Shown one piece after another: positions 16,420 to 64,000 of a DNA stretch of 64,000 bases (within the stretch, counting starts at the first letter, position 1; every line of letters begins with the position of its first letter). A program made the translations under genes and the position numbers. Source of the DNA: Dictyostelium discoideum (Eukaryota); contig CM000155.2 in assembly GCA_000004695.1 (NCBI GenBank), positions 512,001 to 576,000 of the forward strand. The letters run 5' to 3'. The notes beneath the pieces were generated by a model. It ran no database searches. It worked only from the letters and a program-made list of their open reading frames with translations, and was not told the origin of the DNA.

Positions 16420-17465
16420 ATGGATAATAATTATAATAAATATAGTTCAGGACAATCAAAAATAATTTCAGACTTTGATAAGATTCAAGATATATTTGAA
16501 ATTGTTTTAAAAAATCATGTCAATAACCAAAGTACCCAGGATAATAATAATATAAGAATTTTAGATATTGGTTGTTCACATGGTAAAAATTCAATAATTG
16601 TCTTAAAACCATTAATTGAACAATTAGAAATAAATGGAAGCCAAATGAAAAAGTAATTGAAATATTTCATTCAGATCTACCAGTAAATGATTTTTCAAAA
16701 TTATTTAATGAAGTTTATCATTTAAATTCATACTCAAATAAAATCAATAATATTTTTACATATGGTATTGGTAATGGATTTGAAAATCAAATAGTACCAG
16801 ATAATTCAATTGATTTTATATTTTCATTTTCAACTTTACATTGGTTACCATTTTTAAATGAATATAAATCATTTGAAGGTTGATTACAAAAACCATTTTC
16901 AGATCGTTTACCAGGTTTTGAAAATTATTATAAAGAAAGATTATTAAATGTATTGCATCATCGTTATAATGAATTAAAAGTTGGTGGTATTTTTTCATTT
17001 AATCTTTTCATTCAAGAAGATCAAGGTAGTGAAAATGAAGAAAAAAGTAAATCAATGAAAAATTGTACGAAAAAAATTAAAGAAATTCTTAGAGAAATGA
17101 GTTATGAATCAATTTTATCAAGAGAAGAAGTTGAAAATATGATTGTTCCAGCCATAATTTTTACTAGAAATGAATATCAATATGCAATTGATAAATCAAC
17201 TAATAATACAGGTCTAAAATTAATTTATGAAAGTAGAATAACAAGCAATTGGTATTATTGTTATCAAGATGATGAATCTTATATTAGCTCAATCATTGCA
17301 TTTATTGGTAATTTCATTAAAAACGCAATTAATGGAGATAAGAATAGAGTTGATTCAATATTCAATGATTTTGAACAACGTCTACATTTAAAATATAAAT
17401 CAAATCCAAAAGATTTCCAATTTCATGTTAGTAGTTTATATTTATCATTTTTAAAAGAAAATTGA
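16420..17465 (+). pseudogene. SAM-dependent methyltransferase of the SABATH-like family, pseudogene. It has a 1-bp deletion at ~16640 (caaattag has become caattag, turning LIEQIRNKWKPNEK into LEINGSQMKK*) and an in-frame TGA at ~16881 (SFEG*).
   Basis: Co-linear with the intact copy at 59564..60610 and nearly identical to the copy at 63206..64000 (shared MKNCTKKIKEILREM, LHHRYNEL). The ORF track splits it into 16420..16656 and 16953..17465. Confidence 0.65.
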
Positions 17466-17659
17466 ATAAATTTTATATGTTGGTAAATAAAATTAAATGT
17501 TTAAATTGAATACTTACTAAAATTTATTTATTATTTTTTAAAAGAAATACAAATTACAACTCTAAATTTTCTATGTTATTTATTTTATTTTTCAAAATTT
17601 TAGTCTATCTTTTTTTAATATAAATGGCCGGTTGTTAAAAAAAAAAAAATAAAAAAAAA

Positions 17660-18720
17660 AATTTTATTCTTGACATTTTATTTTTATTAAATGTTTTGTC
17701 ACCAAAGACAGAATAAAAAAAGTAATATTTGAATGGAAAAAAGAAATTTGAAACAATAATTGATTTTGAAACTTTCATAGTTTTGATTTAATTTAATTTC
17801 TAAAAAAATAAAATGATCAAAAGAATTGGAAATAGAGATAAAATTCAGAATTATTATTATTATTTTTTTTTTCATATATTTATAACGATTGGTCATTATT
17901 AGATTGGTTATTATTTTACATTTTGTATTTTTCGAAAAAGTATTATACTTTTGTTTGTATTGTTAAATTTGATATTTCTTCGAGTCCTGAAATTGGAATT
18001 ATAATATAAATTGATTCAAGTGTTGTATTTTGATAGAGCATTGATACAATTGTTAATTTCATCATCATCATCACGAATAGTAAAATATTTGCCTCCAATA
18101 TTACAAATTGCAAGATTAAGTGTTAATGTTTTAATTGTTTATATTTTTTTATTTTAAATTTTTATTTTTATTCTTTTTTTTATAAATTTGAATATTTATA
18201 GGTACAAGAAAAAAAAAAAAAAAGAAAAAAACCAGTGTGTAAATTTAATTTAATTCAATTTAATTTATTGTACTTTGAGATTGGGGTATTCGAGTTGGTG
18301 TTAAAGTTTGATAGGTGTGGGTAAAAAAAAGAAAAAAAATAAAAGTAAATAAAAAACGAAAAAATAATAAATTATTATTATTTGAAAATAAAAAAAAAAA
18401 AAAACCAATGTTTTTATTGAAATAACCAAAAATATCACAAAACAAACAATTTTTTTTTTTTTTTTTTTTTTGAGTTAATCAAAAAAAAAAAAAAAAAATA
18501 TCCACCAGGCCTGTATTTTATTTTTTTACTTATCTAATTAAATAAATAAAACAAAAAAAAAAAAAAATACAGAATTATTTAATTTATTTAAATATGTTAA
18601 AACCCATATTGAATTTTCCAATGAACATGCATTGTTATATAAACATGCAACATTAACAATTTCTAATGATTTTAAACTATTCATATAATTAATTGATTCA
18701 TTATTTATTTCAAAGTAATT
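17660..18720 (-). pseudogene. Decayed fragments of the F-box-like/LRR family: a duplicate of block 13965..14350, a C-terminal fragment at 17900..18130, and an internal fragment at 18580..18720 (LTYLNKLNK...NYMNSLKSLE)
   Basis: Nucleotide similarity to the family genes. No intact ORF. Confidence 0.45.
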
Positions 18721-18841
18721 AATTATGAAGCATATTAATATTTTGAAACAAAAGGAATAAAAAAAAAGAGAAATTAAATGTAATCATTTTTCAATTATAT
18801 ATTTTATAAATTTTACATATGCAGTCGGGAAAAAAAAAATG

Positions 18842-20518
<1,677 letters not shown>

Positions 20519-21896: not shown

Positions 21897-23520
21897 TTAT
21901 TTTTTTATTTTATTTTGTTTTGTTGTGATTATTTTACATTTTTTATTTTTTGTTAAATTAGATATTTCTTTGGATTTTAAACTTTTTCTAAAATTTTTAC
22001 TATAATTAATAACAATTGATTCTAGTGTTGTGTTTTTGTCGAGCATTGATGCAATTGATTTATAAATTAAATTTATTTTGTTTTTTTCTTCATATTCACT
22101 TAGACGCACTTGAAAATTAAAATCAAGTGTTAAACTGTTAATTGTTTTATTATTTGCAAGCGAATTCATTAAATCATTTAAAAAGTTTTCATTTAATAAA
22201 CTATTTTCATCTAAATCATAGTTGTCAAAACCACAACGGGAAAATGAACCACAATTATGAGTAATTGATAAATTTGTAATTGTTGAATTTGTTGATAATA
22301 ATTTTAAACATTGATTCTAGAGACTTTGAATATGGTGGTATTTCTTTTGAAAAACATGAAATTTCACTACGACTATATGAGCAATAGATTTGATTATCTT
22401 CATTTATACCATTATCAATATAAAATTTAATATCATCATGAACTTCAAATATTTTTCCTTTATTATCATTTCCAAAATCAATAAATTTAAAATTATCCAT
22501 TTTATTAAAATCTAATTCTGTTTTGTCTTTATCACCACTATCTTTACTACTATCATCTCTATTACTATTACTATTACGATCACTATAATAATTATTATTA
22601 TTTTTAATTTGATTATGATCATAGATTGAAGATAAAAAATGAAATTGAAGATTGAAATTGAGTGTATGTAAATTTGGTGATTGTAAAAATCTGTAAAGTG
22701 CATATAATGGTATGAAGTCGTCAATGATTTCTACACTTTCATAGTTTTGATTTAATTTTGAAATTGAGTGATATTGTTGAAGATGTGATTCTCCTGAATC
22801 TGAAACACATCGAAGGGGTTTGATTTTTAAATATTTTGGGTTTAATTCTTTAATCATTTCATAAACGAATCCATAGGTTGTATTATATTCAATATCATAT
22901 GAAACTTTAAATTCATTTGTTTTAAATTTGAATTCTTCTTTTTCAATATGTTCTAAATTTGTTGGTTCATAGGGATCACAGCAACCCAAATATAAATTAA
23001 AATTAATTAATAAATCTTTATTATTTAATTTATTTTAATATGTTAAAACCCATATTGAATTTGTGAATGAATATTCATAGTAATGTAAACATCTAATATT
23101 AACAGTTTCTAATGATTTTAAACTATTCATATAATTAATTGATTTATTATTTATTTCAAAGTAATAAACTATTATTGTTTTAACTAAATCATTATGAATC
23201 AATTTAAATTTGTTATTATTACTATTATTATAATTATTATTATTATTGATTTTGTAAAGAATATTTGTTATATTTAAAATTTGAATAGTTTTTATTATTA
23301 TTATTATCAAAATAAATACGTGGAATAAAATTACTGAAAAGTTTTTGAGAATTTTAAACCAATTCGAATCCACAAGGGAATAATTTATTATTTTGTTTTT
23401 AAATTCTTTTAAAATTTCAAAACTGTCCATTTTATCATATTCTTCATATAATAACCATTATTATCATTATTTACTGATAGATTTGCTTTGAGTTTTTTAT
23501 TTGTAGTTTCGTCTTCCATT
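21897..23520 (-). pseudogene. F-box-like/LRR family member disrupted by several frameshifts. The ORF fragments are 21897..22169, 22255..22989 and 23035..23430, with the start MEDETTNKKLK at ~23518.
   Basis: Co-linear with the intact members but the frame is broken at least three times. A further N-terminal fragment lies at ~21060..21140. Confidence 0.6.
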
Positions 23521-24393: not shown

Positions 24394-27300
24394 TTATTTT
24401 TTATTTTTTTTATCAATAGAATTTTTAACAAGTTGAATAAATGAATTGATTGTACTATTTTGGACTTGTTGAATTGTTAATGCATTTGGAATTGAAAATT
24501 CTTTATCTACCCAATTCTTTAATTGAATGATAACTAAAGAATCTACACCATAATCAACTAAAATGATATCTTTATTAAGTTTTAAAATATCAGTTGATAA
24601 TAACTCTGAAATTTTAAATGTTATTAATTGGTCAACAGTTAATTCAACATTGTCATCTTTTAATAATGATTTTGATTTTTCATTTTCTTCATTTATATTA
24701 ATTTGGTAATCAAATTTAGATATTAATGATTTTTGAGGTAATCCATTCAACGAGGTGAAATTGAAATTTGATAAAATTAAATTTGATGATTGTGCTTGAT
24801 TTTGTAATTGTAAATCCAATGTACCTAAAATTAAATTGGTTGATATTGGTAAAAGACCTTCACCACTTAATAATGCTGCAACACTTTCATTTCTTGAAAC
24901 GAAACCTGTTGATTGAATTAAACCATAATTTGTACAAATTGTTGGTAAACCAATTGAAATTCTATATTTTGATAAAGCATCTAAAACATTATTAGATGAG
25001 ATGTAACCACATTGATTTGCAGAACTTGTTTTACTTGTTATACTTGATGACATTATAAAATTGATTATTTTCCAATTTCTTTTAATTGATTGATTATGTA
25101 AATTAATTGCACCCATTGATTTTGCACTATGAGATTGTGTTAAATGATGTAAATCAACTTCATCAGAATTACAAGTGGCTTGAGTGTATGCGAAATGGAA
25201 TATTGAATCGATATTATTAATATCTGGATTTTCAATTAATAATTCATGAATTCCCTTATCTGTTAATCCAGAATCACTAATATCAACACTCTTGAAATGG
25301 AATTTAATTTTATTTAAATAATTACCCATACTATTAATTGAATTTGAATTTAGTAACTTTGTCTTGTTAATTAATAATTCCATTTCCCATTTAATTGATG
25401 ATTTTGATAAAATGATTATATTGTCAATTGAATTATTTTCAGAATTTCTTAATATCCATTTTAAAATTTCTAAAACTATACCTGATTGACCTGTTATTAA
25501 TATGTTTTTACCTAATAATGATGGTTCAAGTTTATAATTTTGTTTAAAAATTGATTGATCAAATTTATCAATTGATTTTTGTTTTTCAATTAATTCATTA
25601 ATTATTGAATCTTGATTTTCATGATCGACAACAATTTTACCCATATGAACTCTTTCATTTATAAATTCAATTGAGTCTTTAACATTTTCAATTGAATACT
25701 CAGTAATTGGGATTAATTGTAAATCATTTGATGAAACTGCATTTGAAATTATTGATAATGTTGATTTTATAATTTTCTTATCAACATATTGTAATTCAAT
25801 ATTATGATAACCATAATTATATTTAAATTTCTTATTATCAGTAAATTCATTTGAATTTAAATGAGTAATTGATAAATCAACAATTCTACCACTCATATTT
25901 AAACATTTGAAATTTGAATCCATATAATCACTTGATGATAATGTATTCAATATAAAGTCAACACCACTTTTACCAAATGGATTTAATTTACTAATTTTTG
26001 ATTTAATTTGTTTAACGAAATTTTTATTTCTTGTTGAATATATACCTGAAATCATATCACCATAATTTTCTCTTAAATACTCTTCTTTTTCATTTGAACC
26101 AACAGTTACAAAAATTAAACCAGAATGGCCTTTCCATTTTAATATTTCTAAAGTTGATAAACCAACACCACCAGTTGCAGAATGAATTAATATTGTTTCA
26201 TTATTTTTTAATGCACCAATATTATAAAGTGAATGATATGAAGTTAAATAAACAACTGGAATTGATGATGCTTCTGAATGAGATATGTTTGATGGTTTAT
26301 GACTTATTACATCAATATCTGTAATAATATGAGATGATGTTGTACTTTTTCCAGTACCATAAACACTATCACCAACTTTAAATTCTTTATTTCCACTTCC
26401 GATATTAGTAATTATTCCAGAAAACTCTATACCGAAAATTGGTTCAACACTCTCTACTAAACCTGCATATATTAAATAATCTTTATAATTTAAACCTGTT
26501 GACATTACTTTAATTTCAACTTCATTTTCTTTTAATATTGATGTTGGTTTTACTTTTACTTTATATTCTAAATTTGGTGTTAATGATATCATAAAGTTAT
26601 CAACTTGTTCTAATGATTCAAATGAACTTGAGTTCTTGAAAATTGATTTTAATTTTGTTTCATTTTTAATTCTTTCATAATAAACCTTATGATTATTAAT
26701 TATAAACTCTCTTTGTATATTAATTGATGAATTAATTAATGGTTCAATTGTTTTAAATAAATTTTGATTTTCAATAATTGATGGGGTATCGAAATTTAAT
26801 ATAAACAACTCTAAAGGACATTCATGATAATATCTTGCAGCACCAATTAATGATGAACTTAAATAATTGGTTGTTGTCGAATCATTTGTAATTAAAACAT
26901 GCTTACATTTACTATTCAATTCCATTAATTTTTGATTGATTTGAGTATATTCATGTGTAATGTTTACGAAATTATCAACAGATAATTCATCAATTGATTT
27001 AATGAAGTAAATAATTGATTCATTTGAAATATATTTTGTCATTTTATTAAACTCTTCAATTGTTGATATAAATTGTAAATTTCCATTATCAATTGATTTT
27101 ATAAAATTATTTGATAAGTTTGAATCATCTTTATTGCCAAAAACAATAATATTATTATAATTTGTGGTTTCAGATTTTGAAAATGAAAGATTTGAAATTG
27201 ATGGTTTTTGTGCTTGAATTACAAAACATGTTAATTCTGGTGTCATTTTAATATCATCATTAAAATTTACTGATTTTAATAACTTATACCAAGTTTGTTG

Positions 27301-30300
27301 ATTCATACAACATCTATCTTTTCTAATTTCAGTATCTTGGAAAGACCACCATTGATCAAAAACACCAAAAATACCATCACCTACAATTGATTTATAAATT
27401 GGTTCAATGAATAATAAATGACCATTTGGTACTAATAATTGATAAATTTGTTCAACACCATATTTAACATCTTTAATGACATGTAATACATTAAACATAA
27501 TTATATAATCAAAGTATTGTGGTTTCAATCCTTGTTTTTCACCAATCAATGGTTGTTCTAAATTTAATGCTTTATAAATTATATTAACTCTATCATTAAA
27601 CTTTTCAAATTTAGCTTTTGCTTCGGTAATAAAAGATGGTGATATATCTGACCATGTATATTCAATATCAATTTGATAATTTGGATATTGAATTAATAAT
27701 GAATTGATTTTTTCAAGTACTAATAATGATAATGATCCAACACCACCTCCAAATTCTAATATTCTAAATACTAATTTTTCATTTAATATTGGTTTGATGG
27801 ATTCTTGAATGATTTCACCCACCAATTCATTTTGAGCAGAAAAACCACTTGAATAGAATTTATCTAATAAACCGCCTTCGAATAATGATTGTGGTGAATC
27901 TTCATCATTATCATTTTCTAATGGGAATAATAACTTTGAAATTATCTTTGTTGACTTTGAGAATATCTTAAAATTATGAGGACTTAAAACATTTTCAAAA
28001 TCATAATCTTCATTATGGTACCATTGTTTTATTGATTCAAATGCAAATGTAAATAATCTTGAAAGCCATTTATTATCATTATCTTCTTTAATTTTATAAT
28101 ATTTTAATAATAATTGTTCAATTTCACTTGATTGAATTTCAGCAATTGTAATTTCTGGACATCTTTTATTGATATTTGAAAATAATAATTTTGGAATAAA
28201 TGATTCATAAATTTTAATTTGGTCAACATATTCATCAGTTATTTTTCTTTTGAAAATATGATCAAATGATGATAGTGATGGAATTAATGAATCTTTTGAT
28301 TGAAGATAGCATGAATAAATTTCATTTGTTGGATATTCCATTGCCAATGAATCTTTAATTTTTGTAGTTGATTTAAATGATGCGTTTTCCATTTCAAATA
28401 AAACAGTACCATTTTCTAACATTACAATAATTGATGCAGAATATGAATCACCAATTCTTGGTTTTAATTTTGAATAAACATATATTTTAGAATGTTGACT
28501 TGTGGTTGTTGGAACTTTTGATGAATAATAGGTTAATCCTTCAAGTTTTTCAAATACCAATTGACAATTCTCATCAATTAAACCAATTGAACCATGTAAA
28601 CAACAATCAATAATTGATGAATCAAAAAAGGTTGATCTATTTTCATTAACACCTTGGCTTAGTGATAATTCAGATAATGAACAATTATTTCCAAAATAAC
28701 ATTTCTCAACTCTTTGGAAATCACCAGAATAATTTAAACCACATTTTGTTTTAATATGAGAATATAATTCTTGTTTTGATAATTTTGTAAGGTTACATTG
28801 ATTTGAAATTAAATCATTTATATTATATTTAAATAGTGATTCTTCATCATCTTCATTTAAACCTTGGCCTCTTGAAAATAATTGGAAATTTGCAGTTGAT
28901 GTTTGTACCCAATCGCTTGATGATTTTTCATCTTTAAAATGGAATAATGCTTTATATTCTTTTTTACCAGTTGAATGAATGTTGGTTTGTAAACATTGAT
29001 TGACACCATCCATAAAAATCAATGGAGTTTTAAATTCAATAAAACTAATTAATATATCTGGTAACTCTTTATTTGGGTTTGTTGTTGATTCACTATTATC
29101 ACCAAATATTTTTAAAATATTATCAATGTAACCACAACCTGGGAAATAATACTTTCCTTTAATTTGATGTCCTTTTAACCATTGGAATGGTTTCTTTTGA
29201 ATATCAATATGAGTTTGATATGATTTAATATATGGTGTATGATTTGAATTTGAAATACCAAGATGATTGATTGATGGACCATTTGAAAGATGATGTTGAT
29301 AGAGACTATCAAGTTTCCAATATTCTTGTTCTTCCCATTGATATAATGGTAAACTTAATGAAGTTTGAATATTATCATTTTCATTTAGGTTAGATAATTG
29401 AATATTAAATCCGATACCATTATAACCCAAACAATATAATTCTGAAATTAATTTTTGAATTTCAAATAAATCATTTGATTTCTTTTTTGAAAGTGGTGAA
29501 AAGATTGAAACTGATTGTTTTTTATCCTCTGGTACCATTTGTTTTAAATAAAATGATAAAGTTGGATGTGGTGCAATTTCAATAAATATAATTTCATTAC
29601 TATTATTATTAACTGAATAATTTAATTCAATATGTTTATAAATATTTGAAATTGTATTTGTAAATCTTACAGGATTAATGATATTATCATAAACATATTT
29701 GGTATCAAATGGATTCATTTCATCATATAAATTTGTTGTAACTGTTGAGAAAATTGGATAGGTTGATTGTTTTGATTTGAATGAAATTTTTAAAATTTCA
29801 TCTTTTACGGGTATTTGACTTGAGGTATGGAATGAAGTAGGAGAACCTAATATTGTACAAAATACACCATCTTGTTTTAATTCTTTAATAATTTCATTCA
29901 AGATTAATTCTTTACCAGCAATAACAATTGATGATGGTGAATTGTAACATGCAATTTCTAATTCTGGATATCTTGAAGAGTATTTTGAATTATATTCATT
30001 CTCGCCAATTGAAATTGATAACATTCTACCGAGACCATTTGTTTTTGATTGTACCATTGATCTGTGATAAATTAAATAACAAAAAGTATCTAAATCAATC
30101 ATACCAGAACAATATGATGATGAAATTTCACCTAAACTATGACCGACGATAATTGATGGTTTAATACCCCAATGACAGTATAATTCAAATAATGAAATTT
30201 GTACCATACAAGTTGATGGTTGTGCAATTATTGAATATTGAATACCTTTTAAATCATTTTCATTAAATGATCTTAATTTTTCTAAAATTGAAAATCCATA

Positions 30301-32131
30301 ATATTCACTTAATTTTGAATCAATTTTGTCCATTGATTTTTTGAAAATTGGTTCATTATCATATAAATTCTTTGCCATTGTTGAATATTGAGCTCCTTGA
30401 CCACAGAATACAAATACCATTGTTGCATTCTTTTTATTTGATGATACTAACATATTTGATGTTAATTTATCATTTGATGTATTGATAGTGTTTGATTTTA
30501 AATTAAATTCATCCCAATTACTTGCAATGGCAACTGAACGTTGAATTAATTTTTTAGATTTTGATTTTATTTGATTTTCTGCAAATTCTTTAAATTCAAC
30601 ATTATTATCAATTCTTGATTTATATAAATCTAATGATTTAATTGAATTTGTTGAAAATGGGATTAAATATTGTTTTGGTGATTTTGATTTATTATTATTA
30701 TTATTAGTTTGATTTCCTTTGAAACTTGATACAATTAAACAACAATTTGAACCAGTAACACCGAAATTATTAATGGCAATTGAAATTGGTTTATTTGATA
30801 ATTTTAAAGTAGAAAAATCTATTGGGTCTGTCACAACCTTTAAATTCCATTGATTAAATTTAATATTTGGATTTGGTTTATTATAATTTATATTTGGAAC
30901 AAAACATTGATTTTTTAAAATTAAACAACATTTAATTAATGATGATATACCGGATGCACATTCGCTATGGCCAATATTTGGTTTAAATGAACCAATTAAT
31001 AATGGATTATTGGATGAACGATTTTCACTGGTTTTCAAAGCTATTGAAACACTTTCCAATTCAATTGGATCACCAGTTGGTGTACCAGTGCCATGAGCTT
31101 CAAAATAAACGATATCATTTTCATTGACTCCCCCATTTGTAGATTCCAATGCCAAACGAATACATTCAACTTGTGATGATTTTGAAGGTGAATAAAAATT
31201 TGATTTATCTGAAAATCCATTACCATCGACATTTGATGCTGAACCATCAATTACACAATAAATATTGTTACCATCTTTGATTGCATCATTTAAATTCTTC
31301 AAAATTGCAATACCTGCAGACTCTGATCTAACATAACCATCTGCATCAGCATCAAATGTTTTACATTTTCCATCTTTACCTAACATATTTAATTGTGAAT
31401 ATGATTTTGATGTGTTTGGATCTTTAGAAAAAAAAATATTAATAAACATATTTTTAAATAAAAATTTAATAATAAAAATTATAAATTTTTAAATACATAC
31501 CTAATAAAATATTAATACCACCAACAACAGAAATATTACTTGAACCATCAATAATTGATTTATAACCTCTTCTGATTGCATTTGATGATGATGAACATGC
31601 AGTATCAATTGTCATTGATTCACCATGTAAATCAAAACAATAAGAGATACGATTTGATACAGAATGAGAAGATGAAGCGAAAATGTTTTGTTGAATTTTA
31701 TTATTATTTTTATTTAAATTTTGATAATCAAAATTACTGCAACCAAGGAAAACCGAAGTATTGGAATCACGAATTTCAATTGGATCAATTCCAGAGTCTT
31801 CTAATGCTTCCCAAGTACATTTTAATAAAATTCTTTGTTGTGGGCACATGTGAATAACTTCCGATGGATTAATTCCAAAAAATAATGGATCAAATGATTT
31901 CAATTCTTCAAATGGTATTAATCCAGCATATTTTGTTGGAATATCACCTGTTTTATAAAAACTTTCATTCCATCTATCATTTTTAACAATTCCATCATAC
32001 TTATTTAATAATTGACTCCATAATCCATTGGGTGTTAAATCACCTTTTAAATTTGGAAATCTAAAACCTATTCCGATTATTGCAACTTTATTACAATTTT
32101 CATTACTTTGATATTTATTTTTATAATCCAT
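24394..32131 (-). CDS. Type I highly reducing polyketide synthase, copy 1, about 2552 aa. Exon 1 is 31501..32131, the intron is 31422..31500 (GTATGT...AG, phase 1), and exon 2 is 24394..31421. Domain order is KS-AT-DH-cMT-ER-KR-ACP.
   Basis: KS: DTACSSS, EAHGTGT, NIGH. AT: GHSLGE. DH: HQIKGKYYFPGCGYID. cMT: LEFGGGVGS. ER: LIHSATGGVGL. KR: ILITGQSGIVLEIL. ACP: VDYGVDSLVIIQL. The exon 1/2 junction was reconstructed as ...GGINILL|DPNTSKSY. There is no TE/R domain at the C-terminus. Confidence 0.9.
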
Positions 32132-58985: not shown

Positions 58986-59492
58986 TTGATCAACATTAAA
59001 CATAAAATGGATAACAATTATAATAAATATTGTTCAGGACAGTTAAAAATAATTTCTGATTTTGATAAAATTCAAGAAATATTTCAAATTGTTTTAAAAA
59101 ATCATGTCAATAACCAAGATACAAACGATAATATTAAAATTTTAGATATCGGTTGTTCACATGGTAAAAATTCAATAATTGTCTTAAAACCATTAATTGA
59201 ACAAATTAGAAATAAATGGAAGCCAAATGAAAAAGTAATTGAAATATTTCATTCAGATTTATCAGTAAATGATTTTTCAAAATTATTTAATGAAGTTTAT
59301 CATTTAAATTCATATTCTAATAAAATCAATAATATTTTTACATATGGTATTGGTAATGGATTTGAGAATCAATTAGTACCAGATAATTCAATTGATTTTA
59401 TATTTTCATTTACAACTTTACAATGGGTACCATTTATAGGTAAATATAAATCATTTGAAGGTTCATTATATAATATTTTTTTAAAAATTTAA
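58986..59492 (+). pseudogene. SABATH-like methyltransferase, truncated N-terminal half (about 160 aa) lying directly upstream of the intact copy
   Basis: MDNNYNKYCSGQLKIISDF...ILDIGCSHGKNS...IDFIFSFTTLQWVPFIGKYKSFEGSLY, then a stop. The C-terminal half of the fold is missing. Confidence 0.55.
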
Positions 59493-59563: not shown

Positions 59564-60610
59564 ATGGATAATAGTTATAGTAAATATTGTTCTGGACAAT
59601 TAAAAATAATTTCAGATTTTAATAAATTTCAAGAAATATTTAAAATTGTTTTAAAAAATCATGTTAATAATCAAGGTACCCAGGATAATAATAATATTAG
59701 ATTTTTGGATATTGGTTGTTCACATGGAAAAAATTCAATAATTGTATTAGAGCCATTAATTGAAAAAGTTAGAAATCAATGGAAGCCAAATGAAAAAGTA
59801 ATTGAAATATTTCATTCAGATTTACCAGTGAATGATTTTTCAAAATTATTTAATGAAATTTATCATTTAAATTCATATTCAAATAAAATCAATAATATTT
59901 TTACATATGGCATTGGTAATGCTTTTGAAAATCAATTAGTACCAGATAATTCAATTGATTTTATATTTTCATTTACAGCAATACATTGGATACCATTTTT
60001 AAGTGAATATAAATCATTTGAAGGTTCCTTATACATACCAATTACTTATCGTTTACCAGGTTTTGAAAATTATTATAAAGAAAGATTATTAAATGTATTA
60101 AAAAATCGTTATAATGAATTAAAAGTCGGTGGTATTTTTTCATTTAATCTTTTCATTCAAGAAGATCAAGGTAGTGAAAATGAAGAAAAAAGTAAATCAC
60201 TTTATTATTGTTTGAAAAACATTAAAGAAATTCTTAGAGAAATGAGTTATGAATCAATTTTATCAAGAGAAGAAGTTGAAAATATGATTGTTCCAGCCAC
60301 AATTTATTCTAGAGATGAATATCAATATGCAATTGATAAATCAACTAATAATACTGGTCTAAAATTAATTTATGAAAATAGAATAACATCTAATTGGGCT
60401 GATAGTTATCAAGATGATGAATCTTATATTGGTTCACTTGTTGGATTTATTAGTAATTTCATTAAAAATGCAATTAATGGTGATAGTGATAGAGTTGATT
60501 CAGTATTCAATGATTTCAAACAACGTCTACATTTAAAATATAAATTAAATCCAAAAGATTTCCAATTTCATCTTTGCAATTTATATTTATCATTTTTAAA
60601 AGAAAATTAA
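59564..60610 (+). CDS. SAM-dependent methyltransferase of the SABATH/Methyltransf_7-like family, intact (about 348 aa from the MDNSYSKY start; the ORF track opens at 59528)
   Basis: N-terminus MDNSYSKYCSGQ (compare SABATH MxGGxGxxSYAxNS), SAM-binding ILDIGCSHGKNS, and IDFIFSFTAIHWIPFL (compare the SABATH SLHWLS motif). Complete ORF. Confidence 0.7.
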   Translation: MDNSYSKYCSGQLKIISDFNKFQEIFKIVLKNHVNNQGTQDNNNIRFLDIGCSHGKNSIIVLEPLIEKVRNQWKPNEKVIEIFHSDLPVNDFSKLFNEIYHLNSYSNKINNIFTYGIGNAFENQLVPDNSIDFIFSFTAIHWIPFLSEYKSFEGSLYIPITYRLPGFENYYKERLLNVLKNRYNELKVGGIFSFNLFIQEDQGSENEEKSKSLYYCLKNIKEILREMSYESILSREEVENMIVPATIYSRDEYQYAIDKSTNNTGLKLIYENRITSNWADSYQDDESYIGSLVGFISNFIKNAINGDSDRVDSVFNDFKQRLHLKYKLNPKDFQFHLCNLYLSFLKEN

Positions 60611-61499: not shown

Positions 61500-62513
61500 A
61501 AATGGATATTAGCTATAATAAATATTGTTCTGAACAATTAAGATTAATTTCAGATTTTGATAAAATTCAAGAAATATTTGAAATTGTTTTAAAAAATCGT
61601 GCCTGAAATCAAGGTACCCAGGATAATAAAAAAATTTTAAAATTTTAGATAATGTTTATTCACATGGTAAAAATTCAATAATTTTATTAGAAACATTATT
61701 GAACAAATTAGAAATAAATGGAAGCCTAATGAAAAAGTAATTGAAATATTTCATTCAGATGCATCAGTAAATGATTTTTCAAAATTATTTAATTAAGTTT
61801 ATCATTTAAATTCATATTTGAATAAAATCAATAATATTTTTACATATGGTATTGGTAATGAATATGAAAATCAATTAGTACCAGATAATTCAATTGATTT
61901 TATATTTTCATTTTCAACTTTACATTGGGTACCAATTTTAAGTGAATATAAATCATTTGAAGGTTCATTATATATACCAATTACAGATTGTTTATCAGGT
62001 TTTGAAAATTATTATAAAGAAAGATTATTAAATGTATTAAAAATCGTTATTATTAATTAAAAGTCGGTGGTATTTTTTCATGTAATATTTTAATTCAAGA
62101 AGATCAAGGTAGTGAAAATGAAGAAAAAAGTAAATCTATTTATTATTCTATGATAAAAGTTAAAAATATTCTAAGAGAAATGAGTTATGAATCAATTTTA
62201 TCAAGAAAAGAAGTTGAAATGAATATCAATATACAATTGACAAATCAACAAATAATACTGGTCTAAAATTAATTTATGAAAATAGAAAAACTTCTAATTG
62301 GGCTGATAGTGATCAAGATGACGAATCTTATATTGGCTCAATTATTTCAGTTGCTGGTATATTCTTTAAAAATGCTATTAGGTGTGATAAGAATAGAGTT
62401 GATTCAATATTAGATGATTTTGTACAACGTCTACATTTAAAATACAAATTAAATCCGAATGATTTCCAATTTCATCTTTGTAATTTATATTTATCATTTT
62501 TAAAAGAAAATTA
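61500..62513 (+). pseudogene. SABATH-like methyltransferase pseudogene with multiple stops and frameshifts
   Basis: MDISYNKYCSEQLRLISDFDKIQEIFEIVLKNRA*NQGTQDNKK... It runs co-linear to 59564..60610 but the frame is broken many times. Confidence 0.65.
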
Positions 62514-63205
62514 AATAAATTATTAAAAAAAATTATTATTTTTATTATTATAATAATTTTTTTTTTTAAAATATATTTATATTTATCATTTTTAAAAGAA
62601 AATTAAAAAAAAAAGTGAATAAATAAATTTTACAAAATAAATTATTTATTAATTTTAAAACAGAAAATATTTTTCCTTTTTTAGTTTTTTCTTTTTTAAT
62701 TTTATTTTATTTATTTTTTATATCTTTCAAATTAAAACTATTCAAACGATGGCTTGAATAAATTTTTTATCAAAATAAAAAAATCACTAAATCTTTTGAA
62801 CATGACATCATAAATTATGTTATAAAACAAAAGAAATAAAAATTAAAATAAATAAATTGGTACCACTATATAATTAAAAATAAATTTTTTTTTTTTTATA
62901 TTCTTTCATTTTTTTTTTAACCACACCACCTTTATTGAATATGTAACTGCTTTTTTAAATATGTAACTGCTTTTTTAATTGAGAAGTTTGGGAAAACTTA
63001 AGGGGTTAAAAAAAAAAAAAAAAAAAAAAAAAACTTCTGTGTATTAAAAATATGTATAAAACATTTTTACATAAAAATTTGATTTGCTTTTTGTATTTTT
63101 GTAAACTTTTTTCAATATTCCATACAATTATTTTTAAAAATATTTTCATAGCACAATTAAATTTATTTCCAAAAGTTAATTTTAGTTTCAATTTTTTATT
63201 TTAAA

Positions 63206-64000
63206 ATGGATAATAATTATAATAAATATTGTTCTGGACAATTAAGATTAATTTCAGATTTTGATAAAATTCAAGAAATATTTGAAATTGTTTTAAAAAA
63301 TCATGTTAGTAATCAAGGTACCCAAGATAATAATAATATTAAAATTTTAGATATTGGTTGTTCACATGGTAAAAATTCAATAATTGTTTTAAAACCATTA
63401 ATTGAACAAATTAGAAATAAATGGAAGCCAAATGAAAAAGTAATTGAAATATTTCATTCAGATTTACCAATAAATGATTTTTCAAAATTTTTTAATGAAG
63501 TTTATCATTTAAATTCATATTCAAATAAAATAAATAATATTTTTACATATGGTATTGGTAATGGATATGAAAATCAATTAGTACCAGATAATTCAATTGA
63601 TTTTATATTTTCATTTACAACTCTACACTGGGTACCATTATTAAATGAATATAAATCATTTGAAGGTTCATTATTAAATATTTCAATTACAGATCGTTTA
63701 CCAGGTTTTGAAAATTATTATAAAGAAAGATTATTAAATGTTTTGCATCATCGTTATAATGAATTAAAAGTCGGTGGTATTTTTTCATTTAATCTTTTCA
63801 TTCAAGAAGATCAAGATAGTGAAAATGAAGAAAAAAGTAAATCAATGAAAAATTGTACGAAAAAAATTAAAGAAATTCTTAGAGAAATGAGTTATGAATC
63901 AATTTTATCAAGAGAAGAAGTTGAAAATATGATTGTTCCAGCCATAATTTTTACTAGAGATGAATATCAATATGCAATTGATAAATCAACTAATAATACT
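63206..64000 (+). CDS. SABATH-like methyltransferase, apparently intact but partial because it runs off the window end
   Basis: MDNNYNKYCSGQLRLISDF...ILDIGCSHGKNS...LHWVPLL...LHHRYNELKVGGIFSFNLFIQEDQDSENEEKSKSMKNCTKKIKEILREM. The frame is open to position 64000. Nearly identical to pseudogene 16420..17465. Confidence 0.65.
   Translation, partial: MDNNYNKYCSGQLRLISDFDKIQEIFEIVLKNHVSNQGTQDNNNIKILDIGCSHGKNSIIVLKPLIEQIRNKWKPNEKVIEIFHSDLPINDFSKFFNEVYHLNSYSNKINNIFTYGIGNGYENQLVPDNSIDFIFSFTTLHWVPLLNEYKSFEGSLLNISITDRLPGFENYYKERLLNVLHHRYNELKVGGIFSFNLFIQEDQDSENEEKSKSMKNCTKKIKEILREMSYESILSREEVENMIVPAIIFTRDEYQYAIDKSTNNT

Follow-up and report, generated by a model that had tools for sequence, protein, structure and literature searches.

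The 64,000-nucleotide stretch analysed here (the window) comes from Dictyostelium discoideum (contig CM000155.2, positions 512,001 to 576,000). Its G+C content is 21.4%, and its proteins are identical to chromosome 6 entries of D. discoideum AX4. A tblastn search finds five methyltransferase (MT) homologues in the window. Four of them belong to an array that begins at about 59 kb and continues past the window's last base, and the fifth, annotated in AX4 as DDB_G0291680, lies by itself at 16.4 kb. This dispersed copy is a pseudogene, and its structure, its parentage within the array and the history of both loci are our subject.

The array genes are intronless open reading frames (ORFs) of about 348 aa, and the paralogues score 107-111 bits against PF03492 (Methyltransf_7, the SABATH carboxyl-methyltransferase family), for which the cut-off is 29.8. 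An intact paralogue aligns with the salicylic acid carboxyl methyltransferase (SAMT) of Clarkia breweri (PDB 1M6E) at E = 1.6e-11, with DIGCSHGKNS opposite DLGCSSGPNA, IFHSDLPVNDF opposite IFLNDLPGNDF, and FSFTAIHW opposite HSSYSLMW. Likeness to the plant SABATH carboxyl- and N-methyltransferases thus lies in the near full-length match to PF03492, which the repaired dispersed copy shares with the array genes. The differences are that the array genes are a distant amoebozoan branch of PF03492/SABATH, and that the 16.4-kb copy is incapable of making such an enzyme. Relatives of the array MTs were found by a word-indexed search only in the group of D. discoideum, D. cf. discoideum and D. citrinum, in 24 clusters. 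A literature search returned nothing on a SABATH-type family in Dictyostelium and nothing relevant on the four DDB_G loci.

For everything beyond position 64000 we used a second D. discoideum assembly (GCA_054883475.1, locus-tag prefix ACTFIT), which is collinear with the window and 99.4% identical to it over 20 kb at the pseudogene and 99.6% over 14.4 kb at the array, the differences being mostly homopolymer indels. The ACTFIT array has nine elements, in the order 59007 fragment, c59564, psi61502, c63206, psi5, c6, c7, c8 and psi9, followed by a DEAD-box helicase gene. The eighth element, c8, lies about 7 kb past the window's end and is an intact ORF of 347 aa. Two of the four MT copies in the array portion of the window (59-64 kb) are dead, the truncated 59007 copy and the 61502 copy with its several frameshifts. 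Both are present in ACTFIT as well, where they carry gene models of 161 aa (59007) and 199 aa (61502); the 59007 fragment, which holds the 5' part of a gene, stops 72 bp ahead of the next gene's ATG. Table 1 gives the coordinates of these and the other features.

Table 1. Features of the window discussed in the text, in window coordinates.
Feature	Position	Strand	Basis
MT pseudogene, PF03492 homologue, AX4 locus DDB_G0291680	16420..17465	+	tblastn; profile match of repaired ORF; 100% identical in ACTFIT
Lesion 1: one A lost from an AAA run (CAAATT>CAATT), frameshift at about codon 68	16622..16623	+	extra A in 10/10 other copies
Lesion 2: in-frame TGA (TCA>TGA, C>G at 16882)	16881..16883	+	C in all other copies
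Inserted segment, apparently c8-derived: 48 bp 5' flank, coding homologue, 68 bp 3' flank	16372..17533	+	alignment with all array copies; borders read directly
'Intron' of the DDB_G0291680 model, judged an annotation artefact	16653..16939	+	only GT..AG interval that reproduces the 252-aa P0019
Truncated N-terminal fragment of an array member	59007..59492	+	tblastn match 59007-59471; alignment
Intact array member DDB_G0291580, 348 aa	59564..60610	+	tblastn 59564-60607; PF03492 match; 100% identity to P0002
Array pseudogene with several frameshifts and an internal deletion	61502..62514	+	tblastn 61502-62511, 4 frame changes; 34-bp gap in alignment
DDB_G0291616 (the 63206 gene), running past the window's end at 64000	63206 onward	+	tblastn; first 265 residues match the AX4 protein
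5' part of DDB_G0291616, c63206 type	63206..63689	+	41/41 sites that distinguish ACTFIT c63206 from c8 (63230-63689) are c63206-like
Recombination interval, c63206 and c8 identical over 126 bp	63690..63815	+	informative-site comparison
3' part of DDB_G0291616, c8 type, running past the window	63816..64000	+	21/21 informative sites c8-like
Intact X-family gene bounding the insertion spacer	14360..15919	-	ORF list; paralogy to 12418-13464, 18842-20518 and 22255-23430; no Pfam match
Decayed X copy, 3' end and downstream flank	17637..18150	-	89.9% to 13938-14364; 77% to 14378-14555
Decayed X copy, 5' coding fragment	18574..18726	-	88-90% to 13354-13506, 15404-15556, 19898-20050 and 23020-23172
Hexapeptide-repeat acetyltransferase, 181 aa, AX4 DDB_G0291538	21329..21874	+	best matches outside Dictyostelium are bacterial

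The dispersed copy carries exactly the two lesions, a 1-bp deletion and an in-frame TGA, that an earlier note on this DNA had described, as an alignment of all copies and tblastn confirm. At the first lesion, GAACAAATTAG of every other copy reads GAACAATTAG in the pseudogene, and translation runs into ...LEINGSQMKK*; the product at the second ends SFEG*. No further frame breaks were found in 16420-17465, and a single tblastn segment covers 16623-17462 after the frameshift. Between them the frameshift and the TGA deprive the copy of an uninterrupted ORF for the S-adenosylmethionine-binding and substrate-binding core. Repair of both sites restores an ORF of 348 aa, whose PF03492 match reaches 109.7 bits and spans profile positions 10-329 out of 335. 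The earlier note had allowed that the lesions might be sequencing errors, in which case the copy would be functional. ACTFIT is 100% identical to the window from 16299 to 17585, both lesions included, and because this independent assembly is elsewhere distinct from the window, with 42 mismatches and 20 gaps over 20 kb, the lesions are real. A related observation comes from strain ACTFIR, where the gene model for the c59564-like copy (ACTFIR_003556, P0021) includes LEINGSQMK, the out-of-frame peptide that the frameshift produces in the window's pseudogene. This suggests that a different copy may have suffered a frameshift of its own in that region.

The AX4 annotation treats the locus differently. 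When the annotated 287-bp 'intron' is removed from 16420-17465, what remains encodes exactly the 252-aa DDB_G0291680 product, and the locus could then be a functional spliced gene whose GT..AG interval restores an ORF and whose product keeps 50.4 bits on PF03492. We give this reading very little credence. The 'intron' is homologous from end to end with the coding sequence of every paralogue, and its base composition is that of coding DNA (A+T 78.7%, against a coding average of 77.8%). It is also about twice as long as introns of the species usually are, going by the length reported in the genome paper. Exon 1 would finish with 11 out-of-frame residues (LEINGSQMKK...), and the product would be missing approximately profile positions 35-165, a region that includes the HSDLPVNDF and FSFxxxHW segments aligned with DLPGNDF and SSYSLMW of Clarkia SAMT. 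Moreover, a second pipeline gave a different model on identical DNA, with two introns and 309 aa in the ACTFIT annotation (P0016) where AX4 has one intron and 252 aa (P0019). We read both models as artefacts, and the artificial intron of the AX4 model as hiding both lesions.

Comparison with all array copies points to c8 as the source. Over the whole coding sequence (CDS) the pseudogene is 98.6% identical to c8 (15 substitutions, one 3-bp indel and the 1-bp deletion), and in its 5' half every copy other than c8 stands at 94.4% or less. The flanks match c8 at 89.6% over 48 bp on the 5' side and 95.6% over 68 bp on the 3' side, while other copies reach at most 75% and 63.5%, respectively, and fall as low as 52%. 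Because c8 is the closest copy over the whole CDS, and because both flanks match c8 only, c8 would be the parent lineage of the pseudogene. Identity to DDB_G0291580, the intact array member within the window, is 91.2%.

The earlier note had instead derived the pseudogene from the 63206 gene, calling it a near-copy produced by a recent long-range duplication that placed MT copies on both sides of a pair of polyketide synthase (PKS) genes. The observation behind that proposal was sound: tblastn and alignment confirm that LHHRYNEL, MKNCTKKIKEILREM and IIFTR are common to the 16420 and 63206 copies, where the 59564 copy has LKNRYNEL, LYYCLKNIKEILREM and TIYSR, and the two copies are 98.4-98.7% identical at about 16900-17209. 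However, the resemblance holds only for the 3' half. The overall identity of 94.9% over 791 comparable CDS bases breaks down into 92.8% for 16420-16904 (485 bp), which is no better than c6 or c7, and 98.4% for the in-window part of 16905-17465; another partition gives 92.5% and 98.7%. The flanks are unmatched, with 60% identity in the 5' 48 bp. Nor are the shared residues private to the 63206 gene, as had been thought: MKNCTKK and IIFTR are c8 states, absent from the ACTFIT orthologue of the 63206 gene and present in the ACTFIT pseudogene. The similar stretch holds four mismatches between the two copies, and at each of them the 63206 gene agrees with c8, so the pseudogene is not the source of that gene's c8-like stretch either. 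Nucleotide alignment with flanks, furthermore, yields only a gene-sized patch of 1.16 kb and not a segmental duplication, and unrelated genes separate the MT copies from the PKS genes. That the pseudogene is a direct recent duplicate of the present 63206 gene, placed so as to bracket the PKS pair, is accordingly something we regard as most improbable, and its parentage is corrected here to c8.

The 63206 gene, DDB_G0291616, resembles the pseudogene in its 3' half only because that half is derived from c8. The gene is a recombinant of c63206 and c8, with a single switch inside 63690-63815. Of the 24 substitutions that separate the window from ACTFIT across 14.4 kb, 20 fall inside 63816-63959. 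The AX4 protein starts with the 265 aa encoded in the window and ends in 187 aa that match ACTFIT c8 without a difference. In the strain of the window, c8 probably survives only as the rear half of this gene, with the pseudogene as the only record now left of its 5' half. The recombinant most likely arose in the lineage of the window through an unequal crossover of c63206 with c8 that deleted about 6.8 kb and three array members, and the AX4 array is probably three members shorter than that of a wild relative. Haemoglobin Lepore, a delta/beta fusion gene, arose in this way, by unequal crossing-over in a tandem array. The 63206 gene is like Lepore-type fusions in its single switch between array paralogues within a stretch of identity and in the apparent loss of the intervening members. 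It differs in that the deletion here is deduced from protein records, and in that its product is an intact, full-length PF03492 protein.

The same window sequence might be expected if the chimera were no true deletion allele. The tandem array could have been collapsed in the reference assembly, or gene conversion could have left its tract here while psi5 to c8 persist downstream. Such an explanation would suit the 90-94% identity among array copies, the position of the switch within 126 bp of identity, and the fact that the window goes no further than 64000. It is nevertheless unlikely. There is a single switch, after which identity to c8 continues through to the end of the protein, and the AX4 protein accessions go straight from the chimera (XP_635316) to the counterpart of psi9 (XP_635317, DDB_G0291586). 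No AX4 proteins were found in the c6 or c7 clusters or matching psi5, although c6 and c7 are both intact in ACTFIT, from which the window otherwise differs by about 0.03% in substitutions.

The c8 homology at the dispersed site ends abruptly beyond 16372 and 17533, giving a copied unit of about 1,162 bp. The unit occupies a spacer whose neighbours on both sides belong to the X family, a gene array unrelated to the MTs: the intact gene at 14360-15919 and a decayed copy. This spacer measures about 2,020 bp with the insert and about 858 bp without it, and a neighbouring X spacer measures 895 bp. No homologues of the remaining spacer sequence (15952-16371 and 17534-17636) that would extend the duplicated segment were found, except for an 80-bp element at 16034-16113, which is described below. 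The X family is itself a fast-evolving array (12418-13464, 14360-15919, 18842-20518 and 22255-23430, all on the minus strand) without a Pfam match, and its copy-by-copy orthology breaks down between D. discoideum strains.

The age of the insertion was judged from 20-kb loci that were searched for MT sequence with blastn and tblastn. Each has at its centre the orthologue of the acetyltransferase gene, which in the window lies 3.9 kb from the pseudogene. The assemblies compared are, with the identity of their acetyltransferase CDS to that of the window, D. discoideum ACTFIW (98.4%) and ACTFIR (98.0%), D. cf. discoideum ACTFIY (97.3%) and ACTFIZ (96.3%), and D. citrinum ACTFIU (93.2%). None of the five has MT sequence within 10 kb on either side of the orthologue, and the copy was found in ACTFIT, which served as the positive control. 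Upstream of the orthologue, ACTFIR, ACTFIW and D. citrinum have X-family genes, and downstream of it ACTFIR and ACTFIW have a PKS gene. The dispersed copy is thus specific to the AX4/ACTFIT lineage, and because it is identical in both, lesions included, it is older than the split between them. The claim that the copy is recent, also made in the earlier note, is borne out by its absence from the syntenic site in the five related assemblies. These data also bear on whether an old resident MT copy at 16.4 kb could have been overwritten by ectopic gene conversion from c8, with no new insertion at all. Conversion or recombination among array copies clearly occurs, but the syntenic site has no MT remnant in any of the five other assemblies, and beyond the abrupt borders there is no older, diverged MT sequence. 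We consider such an overwriting very unlikely.

Two genes that we took at first for intact orthologues of the dispersed copy were rejected. ACTFIW_000319 (P0008) is instead an array-end gene beside a different PKS gene, and ACTFIZ_005935 (P0001) is an array member, in a fused two-copy model beside transposase genes.

These observations suggest the following history. A 1.16-kb patch, made up of the intronless c8 with 48 bp upstream and 68 bp downstream, would have been copied to a place about 53 kb away, where it landed in the spacer between the two X-family genes. The insertion would have occurred in the common ancestor of the AX4-like strain of the window and ACTFIT, after their separation from other D. 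discoideum lineages, D. cf. discoideum and D. citrinum. The copy would then have gained its 1-bp deletion in the A run and its TCA>TGA change, both of which are fixed in the two strains examined. Later, and in the window's lineage only, unequal crossover in the 126-bp identical stretch would have joined the front part of c63206 to the rear part of c8, with the loss of the three members between them. We infer both the direction of transfer, from the array to the dispersed site, and the mechanism of copying.

As to that mechanism, the copy may have moved through an mRNA intermediate, which would make it a processed pseudogene, or retrocopy. The copied unit is of transcript size, an intronless CDS preceded by 48 bp and followed by 68 bp, where the parental spacers measure 915 and 235 bp, and AATAAA motifs stand just past the stop codon. 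In its transcript-like extent and its insertion away from the parent the copy is like known processed pseudogenes. Two of their hallmarks were not found: where the c8 homology stops at the 3' border the pseudogene reads on as TTTTTTAAAAGAAA and not as a poly(A) tract, and no target-site duplication is recognisable at 16372 and 17533, though this is a weak test in DNA of about 90% A+T. All array copies are intronless, and the parent offers no intron whose loss could be scored. Retroposition is therefore a possible but doubtful route, and we prefer an explanation by DNA-templated repair or by ectopic insertion in this visibly rearranging region. Among non-processed pseudogenes the locus has the usual marks, being a full-length copy of a paralogue with short non-coding flanks, a frameshift and a nonsense codon. 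It differs from them in being dispersed about 53 kb from its parent and not tandem, and in a copied unit no larger than a gene, an unusual extent for duplication at the DNA level.

Taken together, we conclude that 16420-17465 is very probably a young, non-functional, dispersed duplicate of c8, a member of a SABATH-type MT array on chromosome 6. It is a standard duplicated pseudogene and not a new kind of element. Several points weigh against parts of this account. The copy has the extent of a transcript, which suits retroposition no less than copying at the DNA level. The pN/pS of the pseudogene against c8 is 0.26 (8 non-synonymous and 7 synonymous differences, too few to be assigned to branches), a value that does not by itself show relaxed constraint. 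The empty site is not alignable base for base, the upstream X array being rearranged between strains, and loss of the copy elsewhere is possible. Finally, the three-member deletion is deduced from AX4 protein records only, and the window would read the same after an assembly collapse or with a long conversion tract.

The value of these results lies mainly in annotation. DDB_G0291680, listed as a "hypothetical protein" of 252 aa, is a pseudogene with two lesions, DDB_G0291616 is a recombinant of two array members, and the AX4 array is probably shortened. The locus also provides a small, well-dated case of lineage-specific gene family turnover in Dictyostelium, in which dispersed duplication, decay, unequal crossover and presence/absence between strains are all seen. 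By itself it raises no new biological question.

The two PKS genes of the window, at 24394-32131 and 33874-41580 (both on the minus strand), are 95.4% identical in nucleotides over 7.7 kb and so are recent tandem duplicates. Sequence from the ACTFIT PKS region (L002 17950-21046) matches the second of them at 96%. The pair does not include pks39 (DDB_G0290943), which a published paper places on another chromosome.

The earlier note had pointed to the bracketing of the PKS pair by MT copies. Two X-family genes and the acetyltransferase gene lie between the pseudogene and the first PKS gene, and about 18 kb with DnaJ, Leg1, NPC1_N, EB-domain and other genes lies between the second and the array. 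The pseudogene, therefore, is not contiguous with core PKS genes as a member of a PKS biosynthetic cluster would be. The linkage is also not conserved in relatives, ACTFIR and ACTFIW keeping the syntenic PKS gene without the dispersed copy. No evidence for a functional MT-PKS arrangement was found in the gene order of the window and of its relatives, and the bracketing looks incidental.

A PKS-methyltransferase link is kept faintly alive by ACTFIW (GCA_054859355.1), because there a PKS gene lies 640 bp from the array-end MT gene. This PKS of 2,525 aa (L005 1680-11053) has 68% nucleotide identity to the window PKS genes and is on the same strand as the MT gene that follows it, and the rest of the array is inverted. 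Where ACTFIW has this PKS gene at the array end, ACTFIT has the DEAD-box helicase gene. One could imagine the MT array as a fast-evolving tailoring module for Dictyostelium PKSs, and the dead copy as a failed recruitment that still serves the array as a reservoir for conversion, holding AX4's only c8 5' half; we offer this as a speculation with a slim chance of being right.

Some further observations were made in passing. The 80-bp element at 16034-16113 (plus strand), about 300 bp upstream of the pseudogene, is relatively G+C-rich and reads …AAGTGGTGAAAAGTAATTTTGTGCGGCGCTGTGGG, after which comes a run of T. Its counterpart in ACTFIW (L005 11647-11730, minus strand), with 85% conservation, lies between two MT genes at the far end of the array. 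The element has no match elsewhere among the compared sequences and none in Rfam, and folding gives no signal, with z-scores near -0.6. Scans of the window for tRNAs and Rfam families, together with a permissive Rfam scan of 15900-16420, found no RNA genes.

In D. cf. discoideum ACTFIZ (L006 13424-22795), three DDE-transposase genes and the pol gene of an LTR retrotransposon come after the start of the MT array, and the gene model that fuses two MT copies there is 563 aa long. The acetyltransferase DDB_G0291538, lastly, is conserved across D. discoideum, D. citrinum, D. firmibasis and D. dimigraforme. It is 65-71% identical to bacterial sugar/maltose O-acetyltransferases of Paenibacillus, Bacillaceae and Bacteroidota, and on this basis it looks like a gene of bacterial origin.

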